64,000 nt of DNA from Amoebophrya sp. A120 (taxonomy: Eukaryota > Protista > Dinoflagellata), in contig CAJINV010000007.1 of the NCBI GenBank assembly GCA_905178155.1, forward strand, positions 3,924,265-3,988,264. Reading direction: 5' to 3'. A program made the translations under genes and the position numbers. The notes under the pieces were generated by a model. It did not search any database. It had not been told where the DNA came from and saw nothing but the letters and a program-made list of their open reading frames with translations. Below are positions 1 to 57,180 of the stretch, piece by piece; within the stretch, counting starts at the first letter, position 1, and every line of letters starts with the position of its first letter.

Positions 1-301
1 CGAACAAAATTAATAAGTAAAAACGCGAATTTATTTTTCTGGTCAAGCATCATCACCATCAACAGCATCGTTATTACCAGCCAGGAATATGGCTCGGGCT
101 TCTCAAACGATAACAGTTTTTTACAAGATCGGCTGTAAAAATTCACGTATTTTTAAAGATGTTGTTGATGTTGGGTGCAACAGAAAAACGACCACCATCT
201 TCTTCAAGGAAAGAATAAAGACCGAGGACAAGGCGACCACATAGGTTGTAACTCAATGATGATCTTCTATTAGCTGAGTCAATCTAATAAATGGAAGCTA
301 T

Positions 302-27700: not shown

Positions 27701-28147
27701 CAAGGCGTTGGATGACAGCGACAGCTCACCGCCAAGCAGAGTCATGAAAAAGACCTCCGCGCCTGCAGCGTATAATAGATACTCGAAGCGCTTTTTGTTT
27801 TTTTTATCTCTGATGCGATACAGCTTCATCTTCTATACAGTTTATTTCTCATCATTTAGGTGCGTGGAGTTGTTGAGCAAGAAATGCGAAGTAGAAGCGA
27901 GTGCAATTATGGAAGATGTCCTTTTAATTCATGCAAATTTCATCACCGCAGCGCCTCTGGCACCTTCGTGAACCGCAAGAAGAACAGTTCGTACAAAAGG
28001 CGTGACTCCTCGGAGCAGGCGTCGCCTGCGAAAGGGCCCGGGCGCCGAGACTCGGACACGAGTGAGCCGGCCAAGTGGACGCCGTGGGGCGGGCATTTTG
28101 GTTTGGGCAGGTTCGGCAGGATTGACGACGAAGATGATGATGAGTAG
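24731..28147 (+). CDS. Low-complexity (Ser/Gly/Asn-rich) multi-exon hypothetical protein
   Basis: Continuous frame MSTIQPHGG...QNP-YMQEY...EGD-NDGTAAG...NNQ-GNYNKP...SSE-ADEK recovered by removing 4 introners. Ends ...IDDEDDDE*. Middle exons not fully resolved. Confidence 0.55.
24873..24984. mobile_element. Introner, family C
   Basis: TSD CCCGT. The 117-nt intron is in frame and stop-free (read through by ORF 24662..25165). Confidence 0.85.
25049..25380. mobile_element. Introner, family A
   Basis: TACGGGGGTGTCAGGAGCGAAATCGTCAAAGT ... ACTTTGTCGATTTCGATCCTGACACTTCCATA. Direct repeat ATAA overlaps the right TIR. Confidence 0.85.
25537..25703. mobile_element. Introner, family H
   Basis: TSD TCAGG/TCACG. 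Body similar to the 13891 element. Confidence 0.85.
25793..26019. mobile_element. Introner, family B
   Basis: TSD TGAGG, which yields a canonical GT...AG intron at 25792-26023. Confidence 0.9.
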
Positions 28148-34561: not shown

Positions 34562-35321
34562 TACGACTAGGACTACTCGACAAGAATATTTTTAGAGCGG
34601 AACTGGAACTGCAAAGCAAAAGAAACTTTGTTCGCTGCCAGTCTTATATGATTGGGGCCGTTTCGCTGTCGATTTGCTATCTCCCGCCGGTGATTATCAT
34701 GGGGAGATGGCTTTTTTCCTGAAACTGCGTGTAGGAGGAAAGGCAAGAAAGTAAAAAAACCACTTGCACAAGTTTTCTTTTTTCAGTGTTCGAGAGAAGC
34801 AGATGCCTTGAGTAGTACTTACTACAACGATGAAGAGAAAAAAGACGTCGAAGAACTTGCACAGCCTTGAATTTTCTGCTTCTGGACGATGTCGTAGCTT
34901 AAGGTCGTGCAGCTTCCAAATGAGTTACGAACTACTTACACCCACCGTGGAAGATCTTCCGTCTTGGGTGATGGCCTCGAGCTTTTGGGTGAGCCGTGCA
35001 TTGTGAGAAGGGTTTCTCCTCGGAGGACGTCGAGAAGATCGTGGGTACGGCGTACGGGTAAATTACTCTACTACAAGAGGACGGGCCGCACAGTTTATAC
35101 CTAGTAGGAGAGCAACCAGATCATTTGGTGCTGAGTAGAGGAGTTGCTGTTCCTGTGGCGGTGCTTTAGTACTAGCCCCGAGGAAGTGCAGCAATTGCAA
35201 GAATATTGAACTACCACAAGAAGTGAATAAATTTTTATTTTGCGTTCTTGCTCGTAAGCGTAAGAATTTAGCAGCTGTACTAACTTTGACAGAGCTCTCT
35301 GAATTTGAAAAACGAAAAGTC

Positions 35322-38300
35322 ATGGCCGCTCTGTTCAAGCAATGTTTCAGTGCCCAGGATATGGGATGGACTCCACCATTCACTTAAAAAACATTCAAAA
35401 AACTTGGTTTTAAGTAATAAAGATTAGGTTTGTTTTGCGGCGCATTCCTTCGTCCCGGATTCCGCGACGTGAGCTTGATCCTCCACCGTCACCGTTTTGG
35501 AAGCCGTTATATATGCAGGCTAAATAGCTACTTAGCTTTAAATGAAGATCCCAACTTGAGCTAGATAATGAGGGTGAAACGCAATGCAATTCATCAGGTA
35601 TTGTAATTGAAATTCTTATTAAGTGCGGGAGTTCGTCCGCCCATTTGGAGTCGCTTATCACCGCCACGTACTGCTGTTGGGGCCCCTTGAGGGATTTGCT
35701 GGTATAGAGGTCGCGATAGCGTCGTGCGCCGGCACTTTCTTGAAGAGGAGCATCCGACTACTTTTGGTCTTTGACTCATTTTTGTCCACCATAGCATCGA
35801 GAAGTAGCGAAGTCTGATCATCACCATTCAAATGAGGTATTTTGCAGGTCCCGGATGAGGGTATTTTATACCTCATCCGGAACACGGAAACAGTTTGCGG
35901 AGAGGTGAATTCTATACCTCATCAATAGACCTCATCCAAACCAATGATGTGGTATGCTGAATTTCTACAAAAAATCTGCCATACCATGCGGATTAAGAAA
36001 AGCGCAATACTTTTCGCGAGCATTCCCAGAATTCCTCCTCTTCCACCATTTTCCAGGTATTCTGCCGCCGCTTTGTCCCACAAATTGCCACGGGGCCCCA
36101 GCAGTCCAACAGGCGGGTCATCAGGCAGGTCACAGGTTGGGTGCCGTCAAGGAGGTGGTTGCGGTGGTCCTTGCTACTGTCCTTTATTTCGATGTCTTTT
36201 AGAGGGAAAACTAGCTAGCTCAAATTGGGATCTTCGTTTAAAGCTAGGCACTTCATCATCGATAACAAACCCAGCTCACCTCCCGGCGATGTCGCCGAAA
36301 ACACGACGACCCAGACGTCCAAAACTGCATGGATAACTGCCCTATTTTGCTTCAGAGCCAAGTTTTTTGAATGTTTTTGAAGTGAGTGGTGGAGTCCATC
36401 CCATACAGGATTTTACACAGGTGCTGCTGATCGGGCTTGGTGGCGTGGGGAAGAGCACGCTGATGCAGCGCCTATCAAAACGAAAAATCCCCCCTCCCCA
36501 TATCGAAATGGAAATCTGTGATGCAGGATTTGGGTACACAGATCGGATTTGTCTTGCAGTAAGGCATCGCAGCCAGATCCTCGGCCTAGGTAGGGGCGTA
36601 TAGGTCTAGTTGCTTAGCATTGCAAACGGGTGTCCCCTAGGCGCAACAGCATGCCAAATCGCTTCCATAATGGTGCGGAAGCCTCTGCGCTTGTCTTCTT
36701 GCAAGACAGACGTGATTTGTGACCTCAAATCAGCAACGCAAATTTTCGGAAACACACCATTTCGATATGGGGAGGGGGGATTTTTCCTCAGAATAGCGCC
36801 TGAAGGTGCCCCAGTGGAAGTTGGAGCGCATGGCGAGTACCCTGGCAGTACGGAAATGATGTAGTCAGGTGGGAAGTCGACAAATAATGAATAGGAAGCA
36901 CTGCGCTCTATGATCATTGTTATTGTGATGCATGAAATGCCCATACGATAGTAAAAAGTACCTGCTCGAGCAGTAGTTGGGCCCACCATTTGCAAGCATC
37001 GCATGACAAATTTTCCACACGCTGGGAGGCAATTTGCTATGCTGTTTTCAACAATAGGGACTGCGACTGCTCGTAGGATGTTGCTCCGCAGCAGCAACTG
37101 CGCTGATCGTACTGATAATCTACCTCAGGCGGCTCCTCGGTGAGCCTAGCAGTAGTCGGGGTGCTGCTTGTGTAGCAATCCACGCGTGACACAAGATCAA
37201 CATTGATTTCATTTCGACGATTATTTCACCAATGGCGGTCCCATAGGCAGACCTGCGGCAGTACAAAGTATGGGATGGCTATGGAAGAACAGATGAGCTA
37301 GTTTTTTTGTTGGAGCAAGTCTCGTCTCTGTGATGCAGAAACCAATGGGACGGCTATGGAAGAACAGATACAGATGAGCTAGTTTTTTTGTTGGAGCAAG
37401 TCTCGTCTCTGTGATGCAGAAACTGTGTTGTCGTGCCAGACAACCGTGATAGCCTCTTATCTTTTGATCAGGAATTTTCCGCACCACTAGCGGTGCTTGA
37501 CAAGAATTTTTCTCTGTCATGCGTCGATGCAGTTTTGTGATGCTTTTTTTGTTTTTTCTATTTTTAGTTCGCGAGAGTTACTTACACCGACGCAGGAGTG
37601 CTAGCTTTTCCCTTCATAATCGCGCGGGCGAGGCGGAGGAAGACCAGAAAACGGCGGATGCAGCTAAGTGGGGCCGACCGATAGAGTACACGTCGTTTAC
37701 GGGGAGTGCGAAACGCGCCGCGTTGCAAGAGCCGGGCTACAATTATCCTGTGCAAAAACGGATGCAGCGTACCAGTAACCCCACGACTCCAGAGCAGATT
37801 TACTTTTACCTCCATGCGTCTGCATGCTCAGAATGCCTCTCATGCACAGCTCCAGCAACTACATCAGGATCAGGTTCAGGAGCATTTTCTAACGGTATCT
37901 ATATATGGGTGGGATCATTTTGTCATGCTCATGCTCACGAGGCAGCACCAGCATTTTTCGAGTCGTGAGGGAGGATCTCTCGCTAAGAAGTAAAGCGACT
38001 ACCCTGGACAAGGCACTTGCTGATGCGCAAGAGGTAAAACGTGTCGTCTTGACTAGTGCTACTGGGTCGTGGGCAATGCTGCGAGTGCCACGTGTTTACT
38101 CAGGATAACACTTACGAAGTGTTCAATGACTTCGGGCTCTGGGACATACCTTCCATCGTGTCCGACATGCTACCAGTATGACAGTGCACAAGAATCAAGA
38201 ACTATTCCCCTGCATGCTCATGCAGCTCCTCATTTGATTTGGTAGGGCATGTTTAGCAACAGAAACGACGCCATGATAATGGTTTCTGCATGACAGGCCA

Positions 38301-40645
38301 ACACGTAGACTACTGTTCTGTTTGAGCCAGGACAATTCGTGTTACGAATTCTTCCTTTTTTCCCTACCTGAAGTTGTCACTAGAAAGATGGCGCAGTTTT
38401 AGATTCTATCCAGCGCAGCTCGGATTTCTTTGGACTTCTGCACGACCCATGTAGGCGGGACAAGGGCGCCGTGGCGTTGTAGTTCTTTTCTTGTGCAATG
38501 TTATAACAAAATCTGTGGGCGCTTTTCTACCGCGCAGTGAAGTATCACGCAGTCTTCTACGTGATTTCTTCGAGTGACGCGGACAGACTGGAACTGTGTA
38601 AGAAACACATCTTCTCTATCATCCAGAAATGATCTGGGAGGGCATAGTAATTTGTAAATACGTAGAGCGAATCCATGCATGGGCAGACGAAGATCTCTCA
38701 AGGGGCTCGCCCATAGCAGGCTGTCGCTTGAGAGATGCCGCGGCACAGATTAGTACTTTTGTGTATTTATTTTAGCGCCCTGCCAGCTTTTTTCTGACTC
38801 ATATTCTCCCTGCTCTACGAGGAGGAGCTTCGGGAGGCGCCGTATCCTCTGCAAAAGTGTTGTAATCGTTGTACTAATTGCAGCACAGCGTAGCAGAGCA
38901 TGGTCTGGTTTTCATTTTCTAACTTTTTCATCATTACAAATTCCATTCTTTCTTCTGAAAAATTGCAAAAATGCAATTTTTTTCCGATAGTAAGTACGAT
39001 GTTTTTGCAAAAATGCATACGCTGTTAGTAATCCTGATCAACAGTCGCAAGGAGAATCCGTATGATGTTTCTCGGGTATGGATGTGTCAGGATTGAAATC
39101 GACAAAGTTGAAATAAACTCTAATGCATAAAATGGATGAAAGTTGTGGCTCAGTTTGTAAGTGGCGCGTGACAAATTTTGGTAGAACCGAAATCCAGTCT
39201 GTCATGCTGTTTGGGTAAGGAGGGCGCCTTCTGTCATGCTACTTTAGCAGCTCAGTTTCTACCCCTTAACAGGCTTAGTTACAATCTGCCTCACTTGCCT
39301 ACTCTACAAGACAGGCACTTTGATGAGGACTGCATTTTATTACGCAGTGGAAAATCTTCCACTGGCCCCGTTTTTCCACAAATTGACAAAAAAAAAAGTC
39401 AACGCGAGTCCTCCGGTGGTTGCTGATGTTCTGCGTCCGCTTCATTTACTCCGAGAGCTTCTCCTGGCCACACATCGGCGCTCTATGATATGTCGCGCAA
39501 ACTCTGAGCCAGCTAGTGGCGCGCGGCGCCATTTTTGGGGCGCCTTGTCCGAGGGCCCCGAGGCCTTTTCCCGATCGCGCGCGCCCCTTAGCCTCGCACG
39601 GGGCGCGCAAAAAAGGACTTGGCCAGGCCTCGCGTTCTTGGCAGGGCTGGTCGCCGGCGACCCCGGAGACCTCTGCTGGACACTCACGAGAAAATCGCGC
39701 GAATTTGACCCGGTTCGGGACGGCCAAAAACGCAACAAAATCGGCCGACTCAGGTCCTTATTCCAAAACATCCACAAGACGCGAAAAATTTCGCGAGACC
39801 CCTGGGGGAGACTAACCAGGCGAGGGCGCGGCGGCCCCTCTCGGTTGTTCGCTTTCGCCGCCTAAGGCGCCGACCCCTGGCGCGCCGAAGTGCCGCGCGC
39901 CGGCTTGGGGCTTCCCGGATGTGGCAAATTGTTGAGCCCGCCGCGCGTCCCGGGCCGCCCGGAGCGCGCGCCCCCTTAAGCATGTCGCCCGGCGGCACTT
40001 TTGCGCCCCCGAGGCCGCGAGATGGAGATCAGCTTGGAATGCCGGAACCGAATGCCGCCAAGGGAGTTCCCCACTATGCGACACATATTTCAAAAAAAAA
40101 ATTGCACTTTGTGGAAAAGCGGGGCCAGTGGACACTTTTCTCTAACGTATTTATGCATGACAGGCTATATTTCAACTTTGACGCTTTCGTCAAACCTGAC
40201 GCTTCCATATCGGGACGCTTTTTATTACGAGCTCGAGTTGTACAAGCTCCCGCCGAACCGCGTGCAGAAATTCGCTTTCGATTTTTCCGCGATCAAGGGC
40301 CCGCGGGATCCGAACATAACGCAAGTCTTGGACTTCGTGCGAAATAAGGACAAGTATGGACGAGAAAAAAGAAGCGCCATTCCATTCTTGGCATCACACT
40401 TGCTACAATTCACTTGGACTTGGAGCATTCGGATTGTTGTATACTTGCATGAAGGAATTCGAGTTGAAAGTTTTTGTTTTCGTGCATGGGTGCATAAGTA
40501 TGCATTTTTGTTCTTTTGCTATGTGGAAAAAATGCCCAAAAGCAAAACTGATTGCTGCGATGCTCGAGATGTAGTTGTTGCTTTTTTCTTGCATAGCAAA
40601 TACCCAAGTGTCAATACGCTGGTGGCGGACCTAGAAAAAAAATAA
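35322..40645 (+). CDS. Divergent Arf/Arl-like small GTPase (about 10 exons)
   Basis: MAALFKQCFSAQD-FTQVLLIGLGGVGKSTLMQR-LK (G1), FGLWDIPS (G3 position), FYRAVKYHAVFYVI, LYEEELREAPLVILINSRK (G4 position), ...VLDFVRNKDKYPSVNTLVADLEKK*. Confidence 0.7.
35360..36405. mobile_element. Long fold-back introner, family G (1046 bp)
   Basis: 48-bp TIR TATGGGATGGACTCCACCATTCACTTAAAAAACATTCAAAAAACTTGG (2 mismatches), TSD CAGGA, internal 31-bp IR at 35534-35564 / 36215-36245. Confidence 0.93.
36473..36795. mobile_element. Introner, family F, copy 1 (323 bp)
   Basis: TIR core GAAAAATCCCCCCTCCCCATATCGAAA, TSD GCGCC. Near-identical to 47878-48277. Confidence 0.95.
36849..37245. mobile_element. Introner (eroded TIR)
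   Basis: TSD GGCAG, TAC...ATA ends. Removal gives STLA-DLRQYK. Confidence 0.7.
37270..37423 (+). repeat. Tandem duplication (2 x about 75 bp) at an intron 5' end
   Basis: ATGGGAYGGCTATGGAAGAACAGAT...GTCTCGTCTCTGTGATGCAGAAAC starts at 37270 and again at 37345. Confidence 0.9.
38843..39019. mobile_element. Introner (D/H-like ends)
   Basis: TSD CGCCG/CGCTG. TATCCTCTGCAAAA ... TTTTGCAAAAATGCATA. Confidence 0.7.
39077..40209. mobile_element. Introner, family A, host of a nested element
   Basis: TSD TCGGG (39072-76 / 40210-14). Removal gives PYDVSR-DAFYYE. Body homologous to the 57482 element. Confidence 0.92.
39341..40149. mobile_element. Nested TIR element (TACG.. family, 809 bp, GC-rich)
   Basis: About 45-bp imperfect TIR (TCCACTGGCCCCG.TTTTCCACAAA core), TSD TTTAT (39336-40 / 40150-54). 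Confidence 0.9.
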
Positions 40646-43600
40646 TATAGTGTTTGCTTGGAGGGGTTTCACTTTGCTTGCGACAAGCCTAACCTCGTTA
40701 TTGCTTTGTTCTCAACTAATTTTCTTCTTCCATCATGCTTGATGATGAGTCTCCGGCTTCGGGCTCATTCCAAAAAACGGAAATCCATGCCAAAAACGTA
40801 GGCACTCACGAAGATGAGGTGAGCACACTGTAGTGCTGAGCTGCTCCGCGCTAGTGCTAGATGAGGCTTGCTCTTGCGTCACTCGTGATAGTTCATAGTG
40901 CATTCTTGATGCAAAGGTTCTTGTTTCTGGTTTTTGTTTTGTGTTGTCATGATGGACTTTTGGGCTTGTGTTCCGTGTCGGGTGAGTTGTATTGTAAGGC
41001 TCGAAGACTTCAACGCTGACTTGAATTGCAGTGACCTTTTTCTACCACAAGCACGCCGCACTAAGAAAGTATTCAGCTGCACAGCTAAATATACAACAGA
41101 ATGGCTTGATATTTGAAACACGACAACCGCGATTTGAACTGTGCTTTCCTATGTTAAGCGGCCTAATTGCGCTTAATTTTTCAGTATGGCACCGTGTAAC
41201 TGGCTACTTGAAAGAACAAAATAATAGTGTGACGACCAGATATGACTAAGAGGAAGGTGACAAAAACAAAAAATCAGATCGAGATCGTCGAGCAAAATCA
41301 TGTGAAAGAGTGAATCGAAGTAGACTCTTGCATTTGTCTATAGTGGCATCCTGTTTCTTTTTATGACTTCGCCAGCATTAGCATACATAGCATATTATCT
41401 AATGATGGTCGCACCACTCTTCATCAGCGAACTAAGTCTTTGTGTTGTGAAAGATTTGTGAATTAACTTTTCCAAGAGGCGCCGCTGGGTGCTTATTTTA
41501 TTTGCTTTTTTGCGTGATTCAGATTCACCTGTGCTTTAACTTGACAAAATTCTCACGAGTTGTACTGGCTAGAGCTAGGAGTCCTTGGACGGAGGACTAG
41601 GACAGCAAGACGAAGAACGGAACAAGTTGTATTGTTCCTATTCCTTTGTAAAATTGCAGTAGACGAGCCGATCTCGGCTGCTCTTACTATACCTATTGTC
41701 GTGCCCGTGCACCAGTAGAAACATAAGACGAATTACCTATAAAGTTTTGCGATAGTACCACTACCATCAATTGATGCTGGGTCACCAACTAGTTTCTTCT
41801 TTCTAATAGCAATAAATTAAGGCTTCGAGTTCGATCACGACAAGTTGTATTAGTAGGAGAATGTCTATCAGCAGAGCAAAGCGAACAAATATTTTTAAGT
41901 ATCAAAACGAAGCAGTAGTTGCGCAGTGAATTCATCTCCTCCGTAGTTTCTGATTCTGTGCGCAGCAGCATGTTGACAGAGTTCCGAGGAGCATATCACC
42001 TCCCGCACAGCAAGATGATGACGTCCTCACGAGAGAGTTTTTGAAGACCCAGCCGTCTACGACTGTGAGGGGCTACTTGTAAATGTATTTACAAGTGGGA
42101 CACAAGAAGCGGGAGGAAGCTGCGTCAGCACGATAAGCTCCTCGCGTTGGAGGTCAACTTGGACGGCGACGGTCATCCGTCTTTTCGCGGGCCCAGCCAA
42201 GTAAGTAGAACGCAATCACCCGCAACAGGTGGAGCCAGCAACTTCGCCGCACAAGAACTCCTCCTGGCTGGTATTTGGGTGGTGGACATAAAAAAAAACA
42301 GAGCTACAAGGTGCAAAGCCAGAAGATGTTGAACTGAGACAGAATTCGAATTGCGCCGCGTCGTGCACGTACTGCTCATCACTCATCTCGACGAGGAAGA
42401 GCGGGAGCAACTACAGCGGAAAAAAAAATACTTTTGAATTGTAGTCGCAACTTCTACAGCCGTCGTGCTGTCAGGCTTCTAGGTTCGTGAGTTCTTGCGC
42501 TGGGAGACCCAAGTTGGAGGTTGGACCCTCCACCTTCAGCGTCAGTGAAGAACGCCACACGAGGTGGACCTCCTCCGGGAAAATAAAAGAGCTCATCTTG
42601 CACTACACGGCGCCCTCTTTCAGTGCGGCTTGCTTCTGGCCTGTGCTCCTGTGCAAATAAATCTACCGCCAGAGGAGCCGTCGCGGTTGTCATCATCTAC
42701 TTCGCTCAGCACAGCCAAATCGGCGGCATTCGTCCAAGGCCTAGAAAATATTCGCTGCGCTGTTCTCTCGTCGAGGATCCAATCTGCTGCTTGTACCTGC
42801 TGTTGCAGAACACCAGCGTGAACAACATCAAGAAGCCTGAACGGAAGAAGAAGGGAGAGCAACAAACTACATACCGGCATTTGGTTATATAATTTTTCGC
42901 GCGGACATCATAATGCAAAGCATCCACAAGAACAGGCTCGTGCAGCAGCGGCCTTGCGCGTCTTCGTGACTAGTAGTACATACCAGCTCTCGACGTCCTG
43001 ATCTCGTTACCTCCTTCTTACCCCGTTCATCGAGAAGAAGACAGTAGGTCAGGACCAGTAAATTAGTGGCAGCTGCGTTCTTCTTCCGGAGTCCGCAGCA
43101 CAGTCCTCGGCACGCACCTTCTTCACGACCTTGGTTGGTCTTGGCATCTCCGAGAAGCCCGGCCTAGCCTTGTGTCGAACGCGAACCACGAGCAGTACTA
43201 GGCACTACAAAAAAACGGTGAGCTTGCCAAGAGCCATGCCGGCGACGACCCTATCATACTTTTCCAAAAATATTACCAGAGCTACATCACACAGAACAAG
43301 AACCTGCTCTAGCTCTACCTCCACCGCATCGCAGCTCTCGTGCGCAATAGAGCAAACCACGCCTAATTGCGAAAAAGTAGATCCAGCTGTTTTTAGGGGC
43401 CGAAACGTCAATACAGTAGTCACAGCACAACTACCTGTGAAGACGGAAGCAGTAGCAGTGATTTTGAACAAGGCAGCAGCACGAGGACATCACCTTCAGA
43501 GGAGCTACAACCGGCAAGGACAAAACCGGCTAAGGAGGAGGAACCAACTCGCTGTGACTGGAAAAACAACAACCAGCAGGCCGAGAACTACAGGAAGTAG

Positions 43601-44859
43601 AGCTGCTGGAACACTGGGAACAAGAAAAGCTGCAAGAAGCAGAATTTTCCTCTCGTCCACCTCGGTAGGAACTCAAAAGCAAAAGTTCGTTTCAGACAGT
43701 ATCAACAACTGGTTGAGCGAGCAGCTTGTTTGCTACAAGTGGTGGCTGTACAGCAGTTCCTCATCTTGCGACGCTAGTTCTTGTCGTACTCTGAGTTCTT
43801 GTTTTTGTTCTCCACGCCCTGGCGACCGCGACCAGCAGCACACAGCATCCACTACATTGTTGTCCCCCGCAAGAACGACGAAGAGCCATCACCTTGTCCT
43901 CGTCACCCCCTACTCTTCATCATCAGTTTGACAACCACGACTAGTATCGAGCAACCTCTTCCTGAATGTCAATAACAGCCAGCTCTGCGTTGATTTCAGG
44001 AACCAGTGGCGGCAAGATGAACGTGCTCAACGGCATCTTGACCGACTTGTACATGGTCTTTCTCCTCCTCGCCATATGGGAGCTCATCTTCGGCCATGAC
44101 TTGCTCTTCCAGCCCGCGCGGGTCGCACTCGTCGCCATCACTGTGGTATCAAGTAACGTACTGCTTCAAAAGATGCAAAGAGCCTTTGTGGCATCTGATG
44201 GAAATAAACGCTGTGGTAGGGAATTGTGCGTGACATCAAGTCCAGAAGCGTTGATGTAAGTAGCTTCACCTTCATCATGTGCGGCAAATTATGCGTCAGC
44301 TTTGTTTTCCATATCGATATCAGGTACTCCTGTTTGCGATTCCCTATCGCAGCTTGACAAGTAGCTCAACAGAAAACGCCGGCGCTGTGCAGAGTATGTG
44401 TGCGAATTTTTGAGTCATGGGTGGTCATTGTGATTCGGCGTGCAGCTAGATAATTGCAACAGCGTGGTCGTGTGGCATGTTGATAGCCATAGTCTCATTT
44501 CGCCATGAGTAGAGAGGACGAGGCAACAAGAAAGTGAACAAGGAAGACGTCAGAATTCGGTTCAAGTTACGGCCAAAATGTTGAAAATAGAATTGGTCCG
44601 CACGTGTTGATGTACTAGTTGTACCAAAACTAGCATCGGGACACAGAGTTTTTAGCTGCGCGCCGCAAGAACTTTTTGCCCTAATGTCTCAACTTTCAGC
44701 CGCATAGTGTGGAGAAGGCCTTTCCAGCAGCAGACTGCACAGGGGCTTCCCAGGGTAGAAAAGACCACGAAAACCGGCAGCATAAATGGACTCGAGTACT
44801 TACTTCTTACGCAATATATTTTTGAAATTAATATCGCAGTTGAGTTCGTGTTCGCTCTA

Positions 44860-47800
44860 ATGGGTGATCCTCTTCCAGGATTTTATGTTTGCACTTCCTT
44901 TATGATGTATAAAGTGACACTGCAACAAGAGGAACAGAACTACTTATTGTGGGTAGAATTTATATGTAGTCATGGCATAGTAGGTAGAGTAGTACTGGCA
45001 CGACCATATTTTTAGAATGACAAGAAAAAGATAATATGATGAGAAGTAATATCTAATGCTACATACGAACAGGTATGCAAGTAGCGAAATGCAGGGCTGG
45101 CGACCCGCCATGGAAGACGCCGCCTGCGCTGAGGACTTCTCCGGCAGCGGAATTTCCTGCCTGCAAGATTGGGCTTTTTTCGGGGTCTTCGACGGGCATG
45201 GAGGTGTCTACTTACGATATACATATAGGCCTTAAAAAATGCATCTCTCCGACAATGAATTCGCTTCAAAATTTGATTTTGAGCTCAAATCTGTAAAAGA
45301 AAATCTTAGATAAAAAAAAATCACGGACGTCGGAACAAGAAAAATTCGAATGAAAGTATCATCTACTTATTTATCAGGTGCCGCCGTCTCAAGAAGGATA
45401 AGCACGGAGTTGCATGGCCACTTTTGCGACATAGTAAAGAGGAAATATAGCAACGCAAGCAGCAGCATAGAGCCCGAGCAGGTGAAATACGCCCTGGGAG
45501 AAGCGTATTTACGAGTTTTCTTTTTGGTTTTCTGCTCGACCTCTCCCCGTCATTTCATCGTATTTTTGGATAGCAGTGGGTCATGATGATGTAGTTCGAT
45601 TTATAGAATACGTCGAGCATCAATTTATATATGTATTCGAGGTTGGTTAAGTTTAAGTGGCTATCTTTCAGATAAAAAATTTGTGGATGATTTATGACAT
45701 TTACCACCTGAAAACAGATTCGCGATGATGGACTTGGCACTTCGAAGAGAGAGTGTCAACGGCGAATTTTATGGCATCAGAAACGAATATGAGTGGGGGT
45801 GTTGCTATCTCGCGTTTGCTTATCACACAGAAAAAAACTAGCATATCCATGTCATTTTTGTTGTGCAAACAAAATCAATACACAAGGAAAATCTGTGCTG
45901 CAATGCTCACTCCATCATGATCTACTTCATTATTATCATCATTCATGGTGGTTTGCAGAACCGAGCTTGCACACGGCCAGTGAGTTATGCGAGTCGCAGA
46001 CTAAAACAACAGCAGAAAAAAAAAAACGCCCCTTTTTATAATTCCGTCCTGCTTGCATACCTGTGATTTCGTAGGCTCCACCGGCATTGTCGTGGTGTTG
46101 AGCGGGCGCGATCTCGTCTGTGCCAATGTGGGAGATAGTCGAGCACTCCTGGCCCGGGACAACAAGTGTCTCTCCTTGTCTGAAGATCACAAGCCCGAGA
46201 TGCCACAAGTAAGATTGGTGTATGTACTTATTTTGCTGTCGGTTCATTGGAGGGCGCCATGCTACTTCACTAGAATGATGAAGGTATGAACGGGATAAGG
46301 ATAACTCGGACGTGCACCTTGCAACCTAGGGGTTTCCTGTGTGTGTTGGACGACGCTCCAGAAAGTTTGAGTTGAGTATAACGCTGGCACGATCTTCATA
46401 GTCACGACGTCGCATCGCGACGATTCCGTTCAACATACAGCAACTAGTACTTAAGTACTTCGAAATATTACCAGGAGCGCAAACGAATCGAGAAAGCAGG
46501 CGGCAGCGTGGCACAAATAGGACCCTGCTACCGTGTGGACGGCTGGGGCTTGAACCTCTCTCGTGCCTTTGGCGATTTCCACTACAAGGGCAGGCCAGAC
46601 TTGTTATGAGAGAACACAACTTGTTCCCTTCCTCATTTGTCATGCAAAAACCTAAATTCACTATCACTCATCTTCCTCCGTTCTTACCAATTTTTGCATA
46701 GCATGTTCCGCACCAGCAGACCAAAGAAACTAACAGCATCTTAGTCTACTTGCCTGAATTTGTTACGCAAAACAACAAGCTCGGCTCTTGCCGACGCTTG
46801 TGTTACAGCTGTTCGTGCATGATTGCGCAGGGGTGGAGGGGGAGTTGTGCATTTTCATACTCGGAGCCGTGGGAGCAGAAGGTCTCTGCGGAGCCGGAAA
46901 TCCGGATTTTGCCCCTCCATGCTAGTACCGACAACTACCTCGTGCTCGGATGTGTATCCGATCGACATACAAATGCATTTCAAGAAAACCTCAGCTGTTT
47001 TTCCTTCTGTCTGAAAGATGCACCATGAGCAGCTGCTTTGCTAGTACTTTGATATTTTTCATAAAAACTTTTGTTGATGCCGCCAATATAATAAATTGCA
47101 TTGAATCTACTACGTAATTTTTCTTCTGCATATTGACCTTGTCCAATGTTGGGTACGCAGCAAGTCAGATTTTTTTTGTTGACACGACTGGGCTGCGTGT
47201 TGAAATGAAAAGTTTGCTTGCATACCCTGACGGAGTGTTTGAGCTGCTGAAGAACCAGGATGTCATAGATTTCGTACAGAAAGTGATCCTTTTTCCTTTT
47301 TTTTGTATGTCAAAAAATGCGGGCATAGTACCCGGCTAATGTGCAACTTATTTTTCGATTTCATTGATGTGAGTAGATTGCAACATTATGATTATCGTAT
47401 TGTATTTCGGTGCAGGTACATTGATGGCATGTTACTATTTTGGTTCATACAACCAGGTCTGCGAGACAACGCGCGACGGCTCGTCTAGCATCTCACAAGT
47501 GGTTGAATCGCTGCTAGACCAGTGCATTTCGCCGAATTTGCTGGTCACGCAAGGAATATCAACTGCAATTATGTCTGGGTCTCGAAGAATGCAATGGTTT
47601 TCATTTGTGTTTTGCATGGCCCATGATGCCTGTAATGCATGGCCTAGCGTCACAGATTAGATTTCACCCAAGAAGGCTTCCTGATGCCTATTCCGCATGG
47701 CAAATGCCCTCCCCGCGTATTACAAACTTGGCTCCTCTTGTTGGTCATGCGATGCAAATATTTTTAGAATCCAAACACAGCAGCACAAGGTGCAACCTTC

Positions 47801-48488
47801 CAGACCCAGACATACTATTTGCAATGCATACGGAAAGGGCGGCGACAACGTGAGCGCGATCGTGATTCGGCTGGAAGTATCAAAAGAAAAAATCCCCCCT
47901 CCCCATATCGAAATGGAAATCTGTGATGCAGGATTTGGGTACACAAATCGGATTTGTCTTGCAGTAAGGCATCGCAGCCAGATCCTCGGCCTAGGTAGGG
48001 GCGTATAGGTCTAGTTGCTTAGCATTGCAAACGGGTGTCCCCTAGGCGCAACAGCATGCCAAATCGCTTCCATAATGGTGCGGAAGCCTCTCCGCGTGTC
48101 TTCTTGCAAGACAGGCGTGATTTGTGACCTCAAATCAGCAACGGACAGGCGTGTTGGGGGTGAGGGACCCCCAACGAGGCCTGCGGATATCATGGGGAAC
48201 TAAGGCTCAAATCAGCAACGCGAATTTTCGGAAACATACCTTTTCGATATGGGGAGGGGGGATTTTTCCTCTCAATAGGAAGGGGCAATAGGCACTACAG
48301 CGACAGCGACAACAAATACGACGGGCACCTCCGCCGGAGGGGACAAAAGCGACGGAAAAGTCATAAACAGAACAAGCACGACCTCATATCCTACAGAACT
48401 ACCGATACCCATAGAAGTGCCCCAGAGTCTTGTGCTGCGGATTTGCAATTATTTGCATGCCCACAGCCACAGCCCGGTGAACGTATAA
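44860..48488 (+). CDS. Protein phosphatase 2C (PPM family)
   Basis: MQGWRPAMEDA, FFGVFDGHGG, GSTGIVV, CANVGDSRA, LSEDHKP, ERKRIEKAGG, LNLSRAFGDFHYK, VSAEPEI, LVLGC-DGVFE, GGDNVSAIVIRL. Start codon tentative. Confidence 0.93.
46605..46859. mobile_element. Introner, family B
   Basis: TATGAGAGAACACAACT..CCTCATTTGTCATGC / GGAGTTGTGCATTTTCATA. Diverged TSD CTTGT/CTCGG. Confidence 0.85.
47557..47830. mobile_element. Introner, family D/E
   Basis: TSD AGGAA/CGGAA. ATGTCTGGGTCT / AGACCCAGACAT IR. Removal gives VTQG-KGGDN. Confidence 0.88.
47878..48277. mobile_element. Introner, family F, copy 2 (400 bp)
   Basis: TSD GGAAG. Near-identical to 36473-36795 plus a 77-bp insertion. Confidence 0.95.
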
Positions 48489-49723
48489 CCTTAACGACGT
48501 CTTATATGCGGACTTACTTGTTCCTTTTCCACCGGGTCCGGGATTTATTTGACTCCTGTTTGCGTCTGGCGATTAGAACTGCTCTAATTCCTTCAACATG
48601 AGTTGTGCCAGGATCATGTTTAAAAAATTATAGGGCTTGTTTGACTTTTCACCTCAAGAACTCTAGGCTCGACTAATATAGTGGCGAACAATCTTCATGA
48701 TCTTCACAACAGTTTCAGGGTTCGTGCAGCGAAGTTTGCAAAACTGTCAGATTCATCGCGCGTTCTGATCTTGACTTCGGGGTGGGTACGTTTTTGCACA
48801 GGATACCTGATCCGGAGGCGGGGCTAAGGAAGACGACGGCGGTGCGGGGATAACGACCACGGGGGGCGGCGCTGCAGCTCCGCTCGGGTCGTTGGCCGGC
48901 GCGTCAGACGGAGGGGGGCGGAGTAAAGATGCCTGAAACCGAAAGTGCCGGGCTCTACTAGCGCCACATTATAATATGTTGTCCGTCTGCTTTTTACCCT
49001 TTTTTTTCTCAAAGTCAAAGAAAAACATACTTTTTCACGACACCGATGAAAGCGATTCAATTATAGTTGTAGTATCAATCTAGAAAAGTTTTCGCAGTAG
49101 TAGCTAGGTAGTAGACTTTAGATAGCAGAATTTTTTAGAGAAGAAACGCACGGGGATCTCGAAAACATAGGCGCTCGTCGAAAATTGGCGGAACTAATAG
49201 GCCGAACAGGTGCCCCCGTACGAAATTCGTTGTTGACTAGCTGCTACTTGAAAATGTAGCGGCGCACCCGTACCGCTGCAAGTTAGTCAAGGCGGACGAG
49301 CAGACCTCGGGCCTTTAAAACAAACGCACAAGCACATGCCATTCACCTCCTCTTCTATACATTGTATACGACGTTGTACAACTTCTTTCTCAGCCGATTG
49401 CGATAAGAATAGCTCTCTGGAGAAAAGCGGTGAAAAATTCCCTGACTCCAGCCCACCTGTGTGATGAATTGTATCAGTATCAAATGACCGATTTATTACT
49501 TCAGAGCTCTCCTCTTTTCGGAGTCGGATTTTTTTGAACATCGAAGCAGACCTTGATCTTCGCAGATTCGCATCAATATAATTCAAGCAGTTTTCCGCAT
49601 ACCATTGATTAGCCAGAGGCCAGTGCTATCGAATGAGTGACGACATATTCTATTACCGCCCATTGTCCCAACCCGCCATGACCAGGCCCTCCGTTGAAAA
49701 CTAGATGCGCAGGAGCAATAACT

Positions 49724-50740
49724 ATGCAGGAAGTACCAACTAAGCACACCACCGAAGATAGTGTCAATTCAGAACTTCCGCCGCACTTCTCGCAGTACGA
49801 CCCCCCCCGAGAAACTGAAACAAAACTAGCGACCGAAATGAAGACCATGCTTGAGGATATAACTCAAAGTTGTTTTTACAAAATGAAAAAGAAAAAAGTC
49901 TAGGAAAATTAAGTTTGATTGCCGCGCATCATAACCTCAATTCTTCGTCGAACTGTGTGATATAATTAGCGATGTTCAACTCATACATTGCCTGGTCCAC
50001 GCATTTGTTGCAGAACGTCCGTGATCTTCTTCCGGGCTTACTTTACTCGCAGATTGCTGCTCTTAATGAAGCCCGTGCAAATTTCGCAAAGTAAAAAAGG
50101 ATCACGAGGAACATGATATTAGGGATCTAGAAGGATCTGCAACTGCAAGAAGGTACTATATTATATGCGAAAAAGTTGAAGTCCTATCTACCGAGTCGAG
50201 TTGCTCGAGTGCGACCCTCGCGAGGGACTTTTATGGGACGAGCTTCCAACAAGTTGTCTTTGTTCAACACACTGACACGGTTGAATAAAGCCAAACAGCG
50301 ACGCACGGTATAACGGTATTGTTTATTCATAGATCTTCAGAATCCCTTGCTTCTCGTTCCTCGATACTTGTGGCACATAGCCTGCTTAAAAAATGTTGAC
50401 ACGGATCTTCTTAGTAGACGACAGTGTGAGTCAATGTATTTGTATGGTAAAATGAGGACTCGACACACACACACACGCGACACATAATTGAGCTCACCTT
50501 GAAGATAGATGGAGACGAAATTCAGTGTGACTATGATCATGGCATATCTATGCTCTGAGATGCAGATGCGCAGCTTCAAAAAGAAGATCCTCTCCCTCCT
50601 TCTACTCTAAACGCCCCAGGCCTGAGGCAGCGTCCAAGGAAACCAGAATCAGGTCCTTTTCGGCCGAAGATGATCTTTTCTTATTTCTCCGCCAGCGACA
50701 GTGCACTTCACTTCGACAGTGTGCAAGTAACTACAGGGGA
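49724..50740 (+). CDS. Possible small multi-exon hypothetical protein
   Basis: Coding-like exons MQEVPTKHTTEDS...MKTMLEDI, QNVRDLLPGLLYSQIAALNEARANFAK and DADAQLQKEDPLPP. Junctions unresolved. Confidence 0.35.
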
Positions 50741-51008
50741 GCGAAGCAGTGTGTTGACGTAGGAGATATATATTCGTACCCTTTGCTCGTGTTTTGTTTC
50801 TTTCACAAGACAAATTCTATTGGCGATGTTCCATCTACTAAGTCTCCGCATCCGTCGTAAGGACCAGGGGATTTTCAATCCGTGTGGCTGCACAAGAATG
50901 TGAATTTACGCTAGTATGCTATATTGTACTTAGCATATAATCTTTATGAGCATGAGAAAGTAAGTGTTAGGTAGTGTATCACGATAGGCCAATACCGAGG
51001 AAAACAAA

Positions 51009-54000
51009 ATGAGCGGGACGCCAGCTGGTGCTGCATCAGCTTGGGACTTCAACCTGCACTACACACCCAACACGGTCGCCGCGTTCGCGAAAACAGCCTC
51101 CGTATGAAACAGAAGCTCTCAAACGTTGCATTCTTTGATGCTGTTCTCTCATTTACATGATTTGCCATCCTTGCAGAATTGCCAGCAGCGTCGTCGCGTT
51201 CACACGATCAAGCTGCTTCGCGTCGCAAGTTTAATGGCCTGAAGATTTTTTTTATTTTTCAAATTTGTCTATAAGGCAAAACGTGCAAAAATAGTACTTA
51301 GCATCAAACTCCCTCCTTTCATTTCCGCGATTCTTGCATCAATCGGCGGGATTATAGCATCAATGTAGTGACGTCGTTGAGATGTCGAACAACTCCATAG
51401 GCCGAGCGTTTTGGGTATGCCGGGATCGCGATGAACTTCGAAGTGGAAGACCTGGCCGAAATGGAGGAACTTTTGTGCATTTTGAAAGAGAAAAGCCTCG
51501 AAGAAGAGACCAGAGCAACCGCGCCCGCGCCCGCTGGTAGTACGACCAGTAGACCAATGGGAAAAACTACATCGATGCTCTTGTCATCTTCAACATTATC
51601 CTCTTGTAGTACTACGTTGAAAAAGAACAACTACAACATCCACGCGACCACTGGTGGAGCAGGAGCAAAAGCTACCGGGAAGGCGAAGTCGCAGTTTCGC
51701 GCCCGTTTTGTCCAGTTTGTGGAGGAGTGCGATTTGGAGAGCTCGCGCTTCTTGGAGGAACAAAGGAGCCGCGTTTTGATGAAGAGCAGGCACGAAGGTC
51801 AGGATGGTGAACGGCAAAAAGTTGCTCGTCCTCGTGAGATGAAACAACTGCAGGCGACGACGAGTACAGCCAGCTACAACAGATTCGTCGACAAAAAGAG
51901 TGGTAGTAACGATGGATCAAAGATGAAAATAAAAACGCCCCCTGCAGCTCCGCCTGCCGATGTGCTGAAACGCGTCACGCTAGTCCACGATGGGGCGGCA
52001 GTGAATTTCCACCGGAAAACGGACTTGATTCGGGAAATCGCAACCTTGCTGCGGCGCCGAGCGTCCAGTCAGAGAAACGGGAAGAACATAGAGACAGCCA
52101 CTATATCATCCGCGTTTCGTGGTGGCCAGGAACAGGAACAAAGTACACCCCTGGCGGAGCACTTCCCTTCTGATGGTCAGCAACCGGATTCGAATGGACA
52201 AACGAAAGCCGAGTCCTCGACCTCTTTAATTCGGAAGCAAGGTCAGCTGCACCACTCGTCGCGATTGCTACCAGCGACCAAGTATGCTTCGAAAATAAAG
52301 TATAGTACTCGTATAAATATAATTAAATGCGTGTCTTGCAGCAAGACAAATCTCTTTTTTTCCCTTAATGTGCATGACAAATTCAATTTTTCTTCGTTGA
52401 AAAAAATTTTTCTTCATGCAATGCTGTGTACTAGTACCAGTACGCAATTACTTTTTCTATGCATACCAAGCGAGCCAAGAAACAAGAGCTGGAGGTCGTG
52501 CAGGCAGCAAATAGAAGTACTGAAAATAATAAAAGCCCACTGCACGACGACCACCGGGTGGAAAATGGGCGGTCCTTCACCACTAAGCCGTGGCTGCTGC
52601 ACAAAAATTATGCCAACGCGCAGCGCCACCCCTGGTGTGATTTCTTGGTGGCCATCCGTCCCGTATGAAGGTACACAACAACTCCCCCTTCCCCTCATTT
52701 CTCATGCAGATAAAACGCAGCTCCAGCACAGCCACTGCCTCATATCTTCGCTATTACCTGGTATGACAAATTTGGGCAGAACCCAATCCTTACTACAGTC
52801 TGCCCGCATGTTTGTCATGCAAAAGCTACATTTCGATTATTTCTGACCTTGTTTCTATTGCTGTTCTTGCTTTCAAATGAGGGGAAGAGGCAGCTTTGCA
52901 CACTCATATTCCGGGAGCGACCAGGCACTGACGGAGATCGCGAACCTCGGAGGCGGTGGAACGACAAATACGCTAGAAAAAAACTGTGTAAGTGTAGATG
53001 ACACCTGTAAAAATGAACAAGCACACGATACAGCAACGGTATACAGTTGTCACGCTAGCCAGCCGTTATCCTGAAATTACCATCCTGTGTTCATGATATA
53101 CATACTTTTTCAAGTACGAAAATGAACTTGGTAATAAGAGGCTATAATGTCTGTTGTCCTGGAGAAGAAATAATGTGTCATGTTATCACTCCAAGACGCC
53201 TACACTGACACAGTTTTTTTACTGGATAACAAGCGCAATCGGTTCATTATCCTCTTTACCCGGCGGAAGCACGTCCGCAAACGCGCCGCCGTTGTTTGAT
53301 CTGCTAGCCCTTCCCCTGGAGCAGCCGGCAACGAGCGCAACCGGGATCCGCATCTTGCGGCCTCAGGTAACCGCTTTACTCGACCGAAATCCAGCGCTCC
53401 TGTTTGAGGTATCGGAGAAAAAAAGATTGTAGCTGCAACTTTATTTTTGCGAGTGCGAGAAGAAGATGAAGAGCACCACATCGTGCAAACAAAAAAAACT
53501 GGCCATGCGCAGCTAGTACTTTTTGTGAAAACACAAGCGCGGCGAGCCTATTATGCATGTCCAGCATGATTATGCCAAGTGTACTACTGAAACTGTCTTG
53601 CCCCCTCGCCTGCAAGATGAACGCAAATTTACACGAGCAATCTCCTCTTTCTCCTGCATATGAGGTTCCTTTCGCGCACTGCCTGCGCGCCGAGCAGGCC
53701 GATCAGTTTCGACATTTTTTTCAAAATTTGCAGAAGCTGGCCCGGCTCACGCACGGCAAGCACTGCCTTCTCACCTCCGGAGCCCGAGCTCCGGCCGTAT
53801 CCACTGCAAATTAATATATCTGGGTCTGGAAGTAGAATGCAGATGCTATGCGTCGTGCTGTTTCTGTATCTACCACACGAGGGTCTTGTCTTGAATGCAC
53901 GCAGAGCATCAGAGGCAGGCTTTGCGGACGCTTTTCCATGATACCCTCTCCGAGAGACCCCTCTTTTGCATGTGCAGACGAGACCATGAGCATGTAACAC

Positions 54001-54622
54001 AGATTTTTGCCTGTTCCAGATCTTCCAGAATCTGCATCCTTTGTTCGGATCCAGATGACATATTTGCAATGCATAGGCCGAGCAGCGGTCCAAATTTGAC
54101 CTGGTGAATTTGGCGTACGTCTCTGGGGTGCTTCAGGTCCAGCACGCGGTTACCCTACGTAAAAGTATACTCGCTCCAGTAAGTACGTGTACGTAATTCG
54201 AGAAGTTTATTCATTGAGCGACAAGCTTTCATTTTGCAAAACTGAAAATAAATGGACAGCCCGGTGGTCATCATGCAGAGGACTGAGGGGGCCATCTGGA
54301 ACTGTGTACTTAGTATGAAAACGCGTATATTGATTAAGTATAATCTTTGGCATTTTGTTGATTTTTGCAGTTGCAGTGGACACAGATACAAAACATTTCA
54401 ACGAGTGTAGTGATACTTTTGCAGAGGATCGCGGAGCGTCACCTACAGCAGGGCTGCCGAAATTTCGGCTTACTTTCATGTTCGTATGGTGATGCGGCGA
54501 ACTTGAATGGTGGAGGTGGACCAGCAGGAAGGGGCAACAGGACGCACGTCTCAGTTGCCAATCATAGTACTACCTGCGCAAATTTTTATGCACCGGCCCC
54601 GGTAGGGGTCGTGCGATGCTAA
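51009..54622 (+). CDS. RPP30: RNase P/MRP subunit p30 (Rpp30/Rpp1) with low-complexity insertions
   Basis: WDFNL...ERFGYAGIAMN; LKRVTLV; DFLVAIRP-GS; FDLLAL; LFE-VPFAHCL...FFQNLQKLARLTHGKHCLLTSGA..PA-EQRSKFDLVNL. This follows the RPP30 motif order (GY..IA.N, RLT, D..AVRP, FEI.Y, GK..IISSGA, LR...DV.NL). 3' end approximate. Confidence 0.75.
52283..52465. mobile_element. Introner (H-like, eroded)
   Basis: TSD CCAAG, TATGC...GCATA ends. Removal gives ATK-RAKKQE. Confidence 0.8.
52664..52908. mobile_element. Introner, family B
   Basis: TSD TCCCG/TTCCG. CTTCCCCTCATTT / AAATGAGGGGAAG IR. Confidence 0.85.
53410..53660. mobile_element. Introner
   Basis: TSD TGAGG gives canonical GT...AG. TATCGGAGAAA / TTTCTCCTGCATA ends. 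Removal gives LFE-VPF. Confidence 0.8.
53798..54075. mobile_element. Introner, family D/E
   Basis: TSD GGCCG. TGCAAAT..ATCTGGGTCTGGA / TCGGATCCAGAT..ATTTGCA. Confidence 0.88.
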
Positions 54623-55382
54623 AAGTTGCACGCTGTACAACTAGTGCTTAGCTTTTACGATCTGTTCAAACCTGCGTGGTAATACCTACCAGCGACCAGG
54701 AGCGCGGACGTATGTCATGCGCTTGCGCATGCATGCATGAGGTTTTTGTTTCACGCGGTCATTGGCCTTTTTTTGTTCCTACTGAGCAGTGATTCTTGTG
54801 CATGCTGCACACACCCGAAAGAACACGATTGATGTCCGACACGACGCCCCCAATAGCAATAAAGGGGAAAATGAAACGCAAGGCCGCGACCACTCGCAGA
54901 ATGAAACAAGAACTACAAAGAGTGACCCTTGCGACTGTTTTTAGACTCATGATGCTTCGCTCACCTGTTTACCCCAAAAAACCTCGACGCATGTTCAACT
55001 TTTGTCGGAGCAGATGCAGATTGAGCAGATGCAGACACAGACTATTCTTGTTGCATTATGAAGATTATTGTCTGATCAGCTGGTTCTTGTCCTTGTCCTT
55101 GTCGTGTTTAGGTCGCTTCTTGTGATGTTTCGTTCCACCATACCAGGCAGGCAGCTCCTATGAGTTGCTGTCGATTCTTGTCTTTTTCATCTGCTAGTCG
55201 GAGAAAAAGTACTTAGCACTTTTCTCCAGATGACATCTGCATCTGGAGGAAAGTGTTACTCTTTCTTGTTCGTCCGTTTTCATTGGTAGACTTTGTTCAT
55301 ATTCGTTCGCTTATCTTTACTTTGCTACCGGTAGTTTTTCCGAACTGAGAAAGAGAAACCAATGGGAAAAATCGAGTAATCT

Positions 55383-56540
55383 GGTAACCAAATGCGTGCG
55401 CGCGCGCGCGCAGAGCGCGCGCCGGCCCACGAAGCCGGCGCGCGCGCTCTGCGCGCTTGCGATATTGCTTAGCAAACGCAGCGCGAAGGCAGTTGCCGTT
55501 ACCATATAGGGCAACCGCCGGGAGGCGTGAAGGTCAGGGAAATGGCCAGAAATGAAGCGGGAGAAGGGAAAAAAAGCGGACCAGATGGGAAAATGGGCAG
55601 GAGATCAAAAATGTCGCAAAAACGGCAGAAACCAAGCGGGAAGAGGTGAAAAAGAGCATTTTTGCGGTCTGGCCCACTTAGTATCTGAAAAAAAGACGGA
55701 GTATTTTTTGGTTCGGCCGCTTGACAGCTGCGTCGGAGCAGCGGTTCCGCGACCTGTTCGGAAGCCTTGAGCCGCTTCGTAAGTGGAAAAAGTTGGAAAA
55801 AAATGACAAAAAATTGCTTCATAACGTGGGTGGAAGCAATCGGCGGATTTTGTCCAGATCACCCGGGCCACTTAGAAAATGGGAAAAGAAGAAAAATCTT
55901 GCAAAAGCGCAATCCCCCCGCAGGCTTGAAAACTGCCACCCAGGTGGGGGCGGTGAAAATGTCCAGGTCGCCCGGGCCACTTGGAAAATGGGAAAAGAAG
56001 AAAAATCTTGCAAAAGCGCAATCCCCCCGCAGGCTTCAAAACTGCCAGTCAGGTGGGGGCGGTGAAAATGTGCAGGTCGCCCGGGCCACTTAGAAAATGG
56101 GAAAAGAAGAAAAATTTCGCAAAAGCGCAATCCCTCCGCAGGCTTCGAAACTGCCAGGCAGCTGCGGTCGGTGAAAATGTCCGGAGCCCTTTGGCCACCT
56201 AAGAACCAGAAAAAAGAGCGAAAATTGAAAAAAATCGAGAACCCTCGGCAGGCTTACAAACTGGCCGCCAAGGGCGGTCCGGCGGGCGCGCTAGAAAGGA
56301 TGCCCCGCTGCGAGCTAGCAGACCGGACGTCGCATTCAATGCTTATCGCAGGATCCTGCGATAAGCTTTGAATGCGAATCCGGAAGCCTCCGATGGCCCG
56401 GGATAGATGTGGGGTTCTAATTAAAAAGAAAGGGTGGTGGCAGCCGCGCGGCGAAAGCGCGGCCCGCAGGGCCGCGCTTTGGCCGCGCGGCTGGCTAGGC
56501 TCTCGCGCTGGTTAGATTTTCGCGCACGCATTTGGTTACC
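55383..56540. mobile_element. Intergenic non-autonomous TIR element (about 1.16 kb) with internal tandem array and GC hairpins
   Basis: Perfect 20-21-bp TIR GGTAACCAAATGCGTGCGCG. Flanks AATCT/AATAT. Confidence 0.85.
55862..56190 (+). repeat. 109-bp tandem repeat x3, plus degenerate flanking copies
   Basis: CCCGGGCCACTT.GAAAATGGGAAAAGAAGAAAAAT... units start at 55862, 55971 and 56080. Confidence 0.92.
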
Positions 56541-57180
56541 AATATCGCCCTCCGGGCGCGACATTCATACATCATCATAGGCAAGCTTTGTATGAATATT
56601 TATCTTTGTTCAAAAAAGTATCCGAGCAAAAATGCACATCCGTTTGCCTGGGCGGGCTCTTCTACTCTAACGCTCTGACTATTCTCCGCAGCTGCCCGTT
56701 CCGCCATGTTGTTGTAGGTATGTGCTGTGTTTAGCGTAGTTGTTCGGAATTTGATTTGTTTACTCGAGCCTGCCCGTGCAATCGTGAATCCGGTTGCTTT
56801 GGTTGACTCCAATTGTGTTGAGCAGGCCGGTTTCCGCTATAAGATATGTATTTGGTTTTGGAACAGGAGAGGACCGGGAATACTTCTACGAGCATTTGTG
56901 TACTACTAAAACACTAGGCCGGAAGAAATCCTCGAAGAATATAATTATCAATACCATGTCGTGGCTCGTCGTTCCACGACCACCTGGGTCGTTTTATTTG
57001 CACGACCGTCAGCACCCTTCTTGCAGCCGGCGGAGTTGTGCCGTTTTTCGCGGCCAGCCACGATTTGGACTTGCACGCTGTGCTGGTGCCCGAAGATGTT
57101 TTATTTGCTCGTACCAGGTAGAAGTTACGAGGAAAGTACTCGTTGCGCCAGGTTGGTGGTCGTGTTGCATTCGCTTGCTG

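Follow-up and report, generated by a model that had tools for sequence, protein, structure and literature searches.

Here, we show, using RNA-like contigs aligned to genomic DNA of Amoebophrya sp. A120, that introns bearing terminal inverted repeats (TIRs) are removed as the element plus exactly one copy of its target-site duplication (TSD), in a fixed register, with a free first base and free last two bases, and in both orientations of the element. The intron consists of TSD base 5, the element from TA to TA, and TSD bases 1–4 (register 4, for the four left-copy bases that are kept). The DNA that we analysed, hereafter the window, is a stretch of 64,000 nucleotides, and its elements are the known introners of this organism: they belong to the A120 genome, form repeated families, have inverted repeats starting with TAT and direct repeats of 3–5 nt at their borders, and leave as non-GT-AG introns. 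As short elements with TIRs and a TSD of fixed length, they also have the features of MITEs. The same inverted repeats and border repeats were described for A120 introners earlier, together with RNA-supported removal, 65% non-GT-AG introns and a splice position that was reported as variable (Farhat et al, 2021, PMC7789003).

The original prediction started from an intron in a gene for a PP2C phosphatase (43966–48936; 474 aa, 13 introns; this gene and all introns given here with both coordinates and intron ends lie on the + strand). This gene is identified by its contig joints, its translation and Pfam PF00481, and its 13 joints translate exactly to P0010, a 474-aa database protein named Amoebophrya sp. 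A120. The element in question (46605–46859, 255 nt) starts with TATGA, ends with TCATA, and lies between a left TSD copy CTTGT (46600–46604) and a right copy CTCGG (46860–46864). Its 5′ arm (approximately 46605–46637, TATGAGAG..., repeat family D6) provides the TA at intron positions +2 and +3 and takes part in a terminal stem in the predicted RNA fold, and its 3′ arm (approximately 46827–46859, ...TTTTCATA, repeat family D4) ends at intron position −5. The mismatches between the two TSD copies were argued to pin the junction behind base 3 or 4, and translation bears this out: keeping the whole left copy (register 5) gives a stop, keeping the whole right copy gives Ser (registers 0–2, DSEPWEQ), and registers 3 and 4 give DLEPWEQ, which is present in five of six aligned PP2C homologues. 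Two RNA-like contig sets indeed join 46602/3 to 46863/4. The one ambiguous base of this joint leaves registers 3 and 4, as TT..CG (46604–46863) and GT..TC (46603–46862) yield an identical mRNA. Bases 1–3 of the left copy are thus exonic by cDNA and base 4 by the rule; the intron begins with base 5 (position +1), and base 5 of the right copy opens the next exon. The predicted TT..CG intron is likely the correct one, a choice that is decided by the other introns and not by the focal cDNA.

Contigs were aligned to positions 38150–58149 (runs X1 and X2) and 21050–32700 (runs X1–X4), 31.7 of the 64 kb. The four runs stem from one study, their RNA status is guessed, and assembled contigs can hide minor junctions or isoforms. 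We scored 30 of 45 joints and two more from piece ends. Among these 32 unselected joints, canonical introns included, 31 allow an N-TA donor, with TA at +2 and +3, where 4.7 are expected, and TA at −6 and −5 is possible in 22. The directly seen introns comprise 24 of the TIR type and seven plain GT-AG introns, and register 4 is the sole register that fits all 24 TIR introns; checking cDNA joints at mismatched TSDs, as had been proposed, therefore returns a single common register. Register 5 is excluded by seven TIR introns (those starting at 21147, 21501, 25048, 26608, 32089, 46604 and 54150, the last only under one way of drawing its eroded end), and registers 0–3 are excluded by eight (21147, 25536, 26608, 32089, 44394, 45769, 46209 and 48386). 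Support for nine further TIR introns comes only from the frame and from the lengths and piece ends of contigs; with them, the cDNA-supported total is 33.

Three joints have no ambiguity at all: a GT..GT intron at 21147–21451 with TSD copies CGACG/AGGTA (one match in five) and an unused AG 2 nt upstream of its acceptor, a GT..TC intron at 32089–32298 in which the TSD is gone and the 3′ TA has decayed to CA, and a TIR-bearing intron at 26608–26830 that is a full GT..AG intron in exact register 4 with no TSD match left. These joints support the predicted combination of an N-TA donor and an acceptor defined by position, as do other cDNA joints. The CT..AC intron at 21501–21621 (GGACC/GGACA) excludes register 5 and has an equivalent GA..AG reading in register 1, the GT..GA intron at 25048–25384 (ATAAG/ATGAC) fits registers 3 and 4 only, and the AT..TG intron at 48386–48809 (CCTCA/CCTGA) fits registers 4–6 only. 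Registers 4 and 5 alone fit the GT..AC intron at 25536–25707 (TCAGG/TCACG), the GT..GT intron at 44394–44710 (CAGAG/GTGTG, with an unused AG 3 nt upstream) and the TT..TG intron at 45769–46063 (AATTT/CCTGT), which has a GT in neither register. That a TGAGG duplication yields a full GT..AG intron, also predicted, is seen at 25792–26023. Of the 24 directly seen TIR introns, 20 have no GT-AG reading, and in nine of these 20 the contigs leave unused an AG that is situated between −3 and +4 nt relative to the acceptor.

Other introns rest on frame and length. An inferred GT..GC intron at 30654–30957 skips a CAG 2 nt downstream; its 497-nt exon sum equals the contig coordinates, and the AG reading breaks the frame. 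Of two further examples in the original prediction, GGGCG/GGTCG in a TM2 gene (33712–34104, GT..TC in register 4) has a joint placed by sequence and reading frame only, and the TM2 name comes from Pfam, where the part exon scores under the curated cut-off. At TCCCG/TTCCG (52663–52912, GT..CC in register 4) the intron length is consistent with contig coordinates (a 626-nt exon sum, by hand), but the name RPP30 was not confirmed, as 51401–52279 has no Pfam match. The claim that every donor reads N-TA(T/C) does not hold throughout: A or G is found at +4 in 2 of 33 introns, and G-TG donors also occur.

The register is also recovered when TA is ignored. A TA-blind complementarity test peaks at a 5-nt duplication with four left bases kept (T=5, r=4), and TA-blind pairing peaks between +n and −(n+3), with 4.65 of 8 positions versus 1.8–3.65 at other offsets, over 17 low-ambiguity joints. 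These tests are ungapped; a gapped TA-blind TIR locator was too noisy and was set aside, as 15 joints exceeded the null, of which 12 allowed offset 3 but 11 allowed offset 1. A codon-likelihood test on 36 mismatched TSDs favoured no register.

Does the target site have to supply splice signals? In one other assembly (JACKZZ01 contigs), a pattern search gave 146 loci (364 kb after merging), a sample that is biased toward one young family. One locus, L024, is the orthologue of window positions 30634–35181 at about 95% identity, and all seven TIR introns of this orthologous stretch are occupied in both assemblies. A symmetric element detector, which finds 0–1 false elements per shuffled 64 kb, returned 379 elements in loci and window together, of which 373 have scorable flanks, 278 could be oriented and 205, all from the loci, have coding flanks; strand calls are consistent with the remainder of the locus in 109 of 124 cases. 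The median element length is 261 nt, and 168 of the 205 have a perfect 5-bp TSD. The bait family is inserted in both orientations (37 versus 22). The 166 young genic elements, defined by a perfect duplication and located outside L024, use 150 different TSD 5-mers. Base 5 is G in 51 of them (31%), compared with 32.5% G at bases 1–4; AG occupies bases 3–4 in 14, and five read GT..AG. New insertions are therefore unfiltered for G or AG in the target, and the need for a target that supplies G or AG, as in TSD-recruiting introners, does not apply to the young elements. G at base 5 versus its mirror, C at base 1, gives 52 versus 40 of 168 (p = 0.18), and elements with weakly coding flanks have G at base 5 in 10 of 25, which is a poor stand-in for an intergenic control.

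The excess of G at base 5 noted in the original prediction (18 of 31 by hand count) is real in the window, where we find 19 of 33 cDNA-supported TIR introns. It is absent from young insertions and sits in older introns with decayed TSDs, so the excess is not an insertion filter. In these older introns G is found at +1 in 10 of 13 (p = 0.001 versus the young set) and a terminal AG in 4 of 13 (p = 0.03), a comparison between different assemblies and different element-finding methods; within the window alone, G at base 5 is found in 9 of 20 versus 10 of 13 in older introns (p = 0.09). The higher share of G and AG in older introns fits the route to canonical introns that was originally proposed, as a slow canonisation of which 26608–26830 may be an end state. 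The idea that base 5 is better conserved between TSD copies was dropped, as mismatches by position are 10, 11, 6, 7 and 10.

At the element ends, +2T and +3A are found in 33 of 33 TIR introns, a count that is partly circular for ambiguous joints, in contrast to the unselected set of 32. Six of the seven plain GT-AG introns also start with G-TA. On the 3′ side, −7A is present in 32 of 33 TIR introns and −6T and −5A in 30 each, and the 3′ TA has decayed in six of the 33. The TA is lost at the 5′ end in two and at the 3′ end in seven of the strict set of 205 elements of the related assembly; a relaxed, noisier table gives 9 versus 15 deviations, and hand-picked rows give 15 at the 3′ versus 3 at the 5′ end (p = 0.008). 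The asymmetry is thus modest. Clear departures at the 5′ end are G-TG donors, which have G at +1, at 45204 (by cDNA) and at 11944 and in locus L001 (by reading frame); one further exception is A-AA with an uncertain strand. Changes at +4 versus −7 amount to 11 versus 3 by hand (p = 0.06) and 10 versus 7 unfiltered. Between the window and L024, positions +1 to +5 and −8 to −1 show no differences (0 of 91), compared with 59 of 1297 inside the introns (p = 0.03).

Our favoured reading, which we consider probable, is a relaxed U2-type spliceosome that reads an N-U-A donor and a local S-A-U-A cue, with the TIR stem as a helper. The TA of the 5′ TIR would serve as +2U and +3A of the donor, with any base at +1, and the acceptor would be placed by distance, 4 nt past the 3′ TIR, and not by AG. 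The 3′ cue would be a local S-A-T-A motif at −8 to −5, possibly holding the branch A, and the stem may aid recognition in young elements. The same machinery would serve TIR introns and GT-AG introns, which also start with G-TA. With age, drift and selection might then turn +1 into G and −2/−1 into AG, with the junction unmoved. Branch points at a fixed distance are known in Giardia and Trichomonas, and judging from the sequence the A at −7 could be one. A strict requirement for a branch point at −7 was dropped, as −7A is missing in four elements in open frames, three of them in the related assembly and one at 62749–63458. One element with such an end, CGTA with G at −7, lies at positions 1396–1667 of locus L042 within an open frame that, by eye, we take to be a conserved sugar-nucleotide epimerase. 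An Rfam search of the 64-kb window found no snRNA or other RNA.

A farther-reaching form of this proposal is possible, although we lean slightly against it: both terminal guanines would be dispensable, with an N-U-A donor and an acceptor set at a measured distance from an S-A-U-A in the 3′ end of the transposon that resembles a branch site. Any element with TAT ends and a 5-bp duplication would then be a perfect intron, wherever and whichever way round it is inserted. Strain A25 would then have reached the same donor from an independent element set.

Alternatively, the TIR stem itself could be cut, 1 nt ahead of its base and 4 nt behind it, with ligation of the exons outside the standard spliceosome, as has been proposed for nonconventional introns of euglenids. 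This is unlikely in our judgement and nonetheless the most serious competitor. It would account for the fixed +n to −(n+3) geometry, and most TIR introns have 8–24 predicted end-to-end pairs versus 0–2.7 in eight canonical introns. U1 was not detected in A120 (PMC7789003), and euglenid introns pair at a similar fixed offset (PMC11282704). However, the exact end pairs are missing from the prediction in about half of 32 introns, and splicing is exact at 46954–47228 (GT..CT, cDNA joint), where no end-to-end pairing is predicted, and at 26297, where it is weak. The first 20 TIR pairs show no G-U excess over A-C (113 versus 149); pairs 21–28 do (48 versus 23), likely by family bias and with no clear signal. 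Moreover, the focal region folds no better than its shuffles (z −0.62), the 5′ TA is kept better than its 3′ partner, the N-TA start is common to TIR and canonical introns, and the TIR introns grade into GT-AG introns, as at 26608.

It is considerably less probable that there is no single rule, and that each intron takes whichever near-canonical pair is available (GT, GC or GA with AG, or AT with AC), with register 4 merely as the common denominator. A GT donor is possible at the focal site in register 3, and seven of the 24 TIR introns do have a G(T/C/A)..AG reading, either GT-AG (4 of 24) or an equivalent GA-AG or GC-AG (3 of 24). Against this, 17 of the 24 lack any of these readings and seven have no GT donor in any register. 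In addition, unambiguous joints include GT..GT and GT..TC, and a GT..AG pair is available in any register in only 8 of the 166 young elements.

That the TSD copies, as direct repeats, themselves guide cutting and joining would suit the many perfect duplications among the detected elements, and is very improbable, since the introns at 21147, 26608 and 32089, with 0–1 of 5 TSD matches, are still joined in register, which largely refutes it. Finally, we give almost no weight to the joints being library or assembly artefacts or element-free DNA: short repeats beside hairpins are prone to template switching, and the runs are only guessed to be RNA, but some joints have no repeat at all, GT-AG introns are likewise all absent from the contigs, the 13 PP2C joints restore a conserved protein, and the elements are present in the orthologous DNA of L024.

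How do these introns relate to known systems? For the elements that Farhat et al (2021) described in this organism, we find a single register that accommodates every intron, in which the donor is N-TA and the acceptor lies 4 nt beyond the TIR. The top non-canonical motifs in Table S4 of their study are nine of the form NT-NN for A120 and nine of the form TT-NN for A25, and the A25 repeats start with TTA (PMC7789003); these motifs agree with an N-TA donor in both strains. Part of the geometry may already be visible in Figures 3, S19 and S23 of that study. In the TSD-recruiting introners of Aureococcus, Micromonas, Symbiodinium and Polarella class 12 (bioRxiv 10.1101/2020.10.14.339549; PMC9860276), a TIR element likewise leaves together with one TSD, and Polarella class 12 has the same geometry: of its 5-nt TSD, the last base becomes intron +1 and bases 3–4 provide the acceptor. 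These introners need a fitting target (NNAGG or GHNN; NNAGG in Polarella class 12), whereas the TSD of the elements studied here is unconstrained and needs neither G nor AG. The introns of Fritillaria borealis are also transposon-derived, TIR- and TSD-bearing and mostly non-GT-AG, and are removed by a modified U2 spliceosome (PMC13326754, PMC11282704); they keep preferred ends (AG-AC, AG-AT) and U1, whereas the introns studied here keep +2U/+3A and accept almost any base at +1, −2 and −1. Nonconventional introns of euglenids (PMC11282704) share a MITE-like origin and non-canonical ends whose distance from a terminal stem is fixed. They have Y|R junctions and CAG/CTG pairs at +4..6/−8..−6 and are released as circles. 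In A120, by contrast, TAT at +2..4 faces −5..−7 and the donor matches the canonical G-TA of the host; of a euglenid-type terminal stem, the fixed offset is present, together with the partial end pairing and the lack of a G-U excess given above. A literature search largely confined to work outside subscription journals found no paper stating a fixed register, PMC12130899 included.

Several further observations concern individual elements. The GT..AT intron at 22258–24732 (2,475 nt; AGTTG/AGATG; 3′ TA decayed to CA; cDNA joint) has a long inner insertion that matches contigs with many other letters, which suggests a multi-copy sequence inserted within an introner; three ORFs inside it have no Pfam match. 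At 62749–63458, outside the cDNA, a very young 710-nt element of a different family, with 56-nt TIRs of 95% identity starting with TACG, a perfect ACAAA duplication and G at −7, lies inside an open frame. A 714-nt element at 35533–36246, whose 35-nt TIRs start with TAGC, lacks a clear 5-bp duplication; judged by eye, its frame may need the element and 6 nt to be removed, which would be an exception to the rule. Two elements at 36473–36738 and 47878–48143, in different genes, share 98% identity across 266 nt, which suggests recent copying. The GT-AG introns at 44796–45072 and 47274–47456 have CATA 7 nt before their end, and the CAG that they use lies 3 nt past the position given by the rule. 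The family of 32348–32612, an intron that by reading frame may follow a stop codon, shows up in the RNA-like runs with many loose ends and with a summed depth of contigs that is very high, pointing to many transcript copies. Elsewhere, 55399–56493 holds three intergenic 109-nt tandem units with several GC-rich palindromes, and 9080–9919 is a PPPDE (Peptidase_C97) gene that lacks introns and has 39% identity to a relative in Amoebophrya A25.

In conclusion, the elements themselves were already known. Against the literature as far as it was accessible, what appears new is the single register, the N-TA donor that canonical introns share, an acceptor independent of AG and the absence of a target filter. 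How Amoebophrya splices tens of thousands of introns without an apparent signature or a detected U1 has been a puzzle since 2021. One positional rule turns the varied intron ends into a single substrate, predicts lariat ends and the bases to mutate, and corrects intron annotation. It also lets a transposon become an intron without a lucky target sequence, with GT-AG gainable later at an unshifted junction. If true, a code of N-U-A and S-A-U-A would explain the mass invasion of Amoebophrya by introners.
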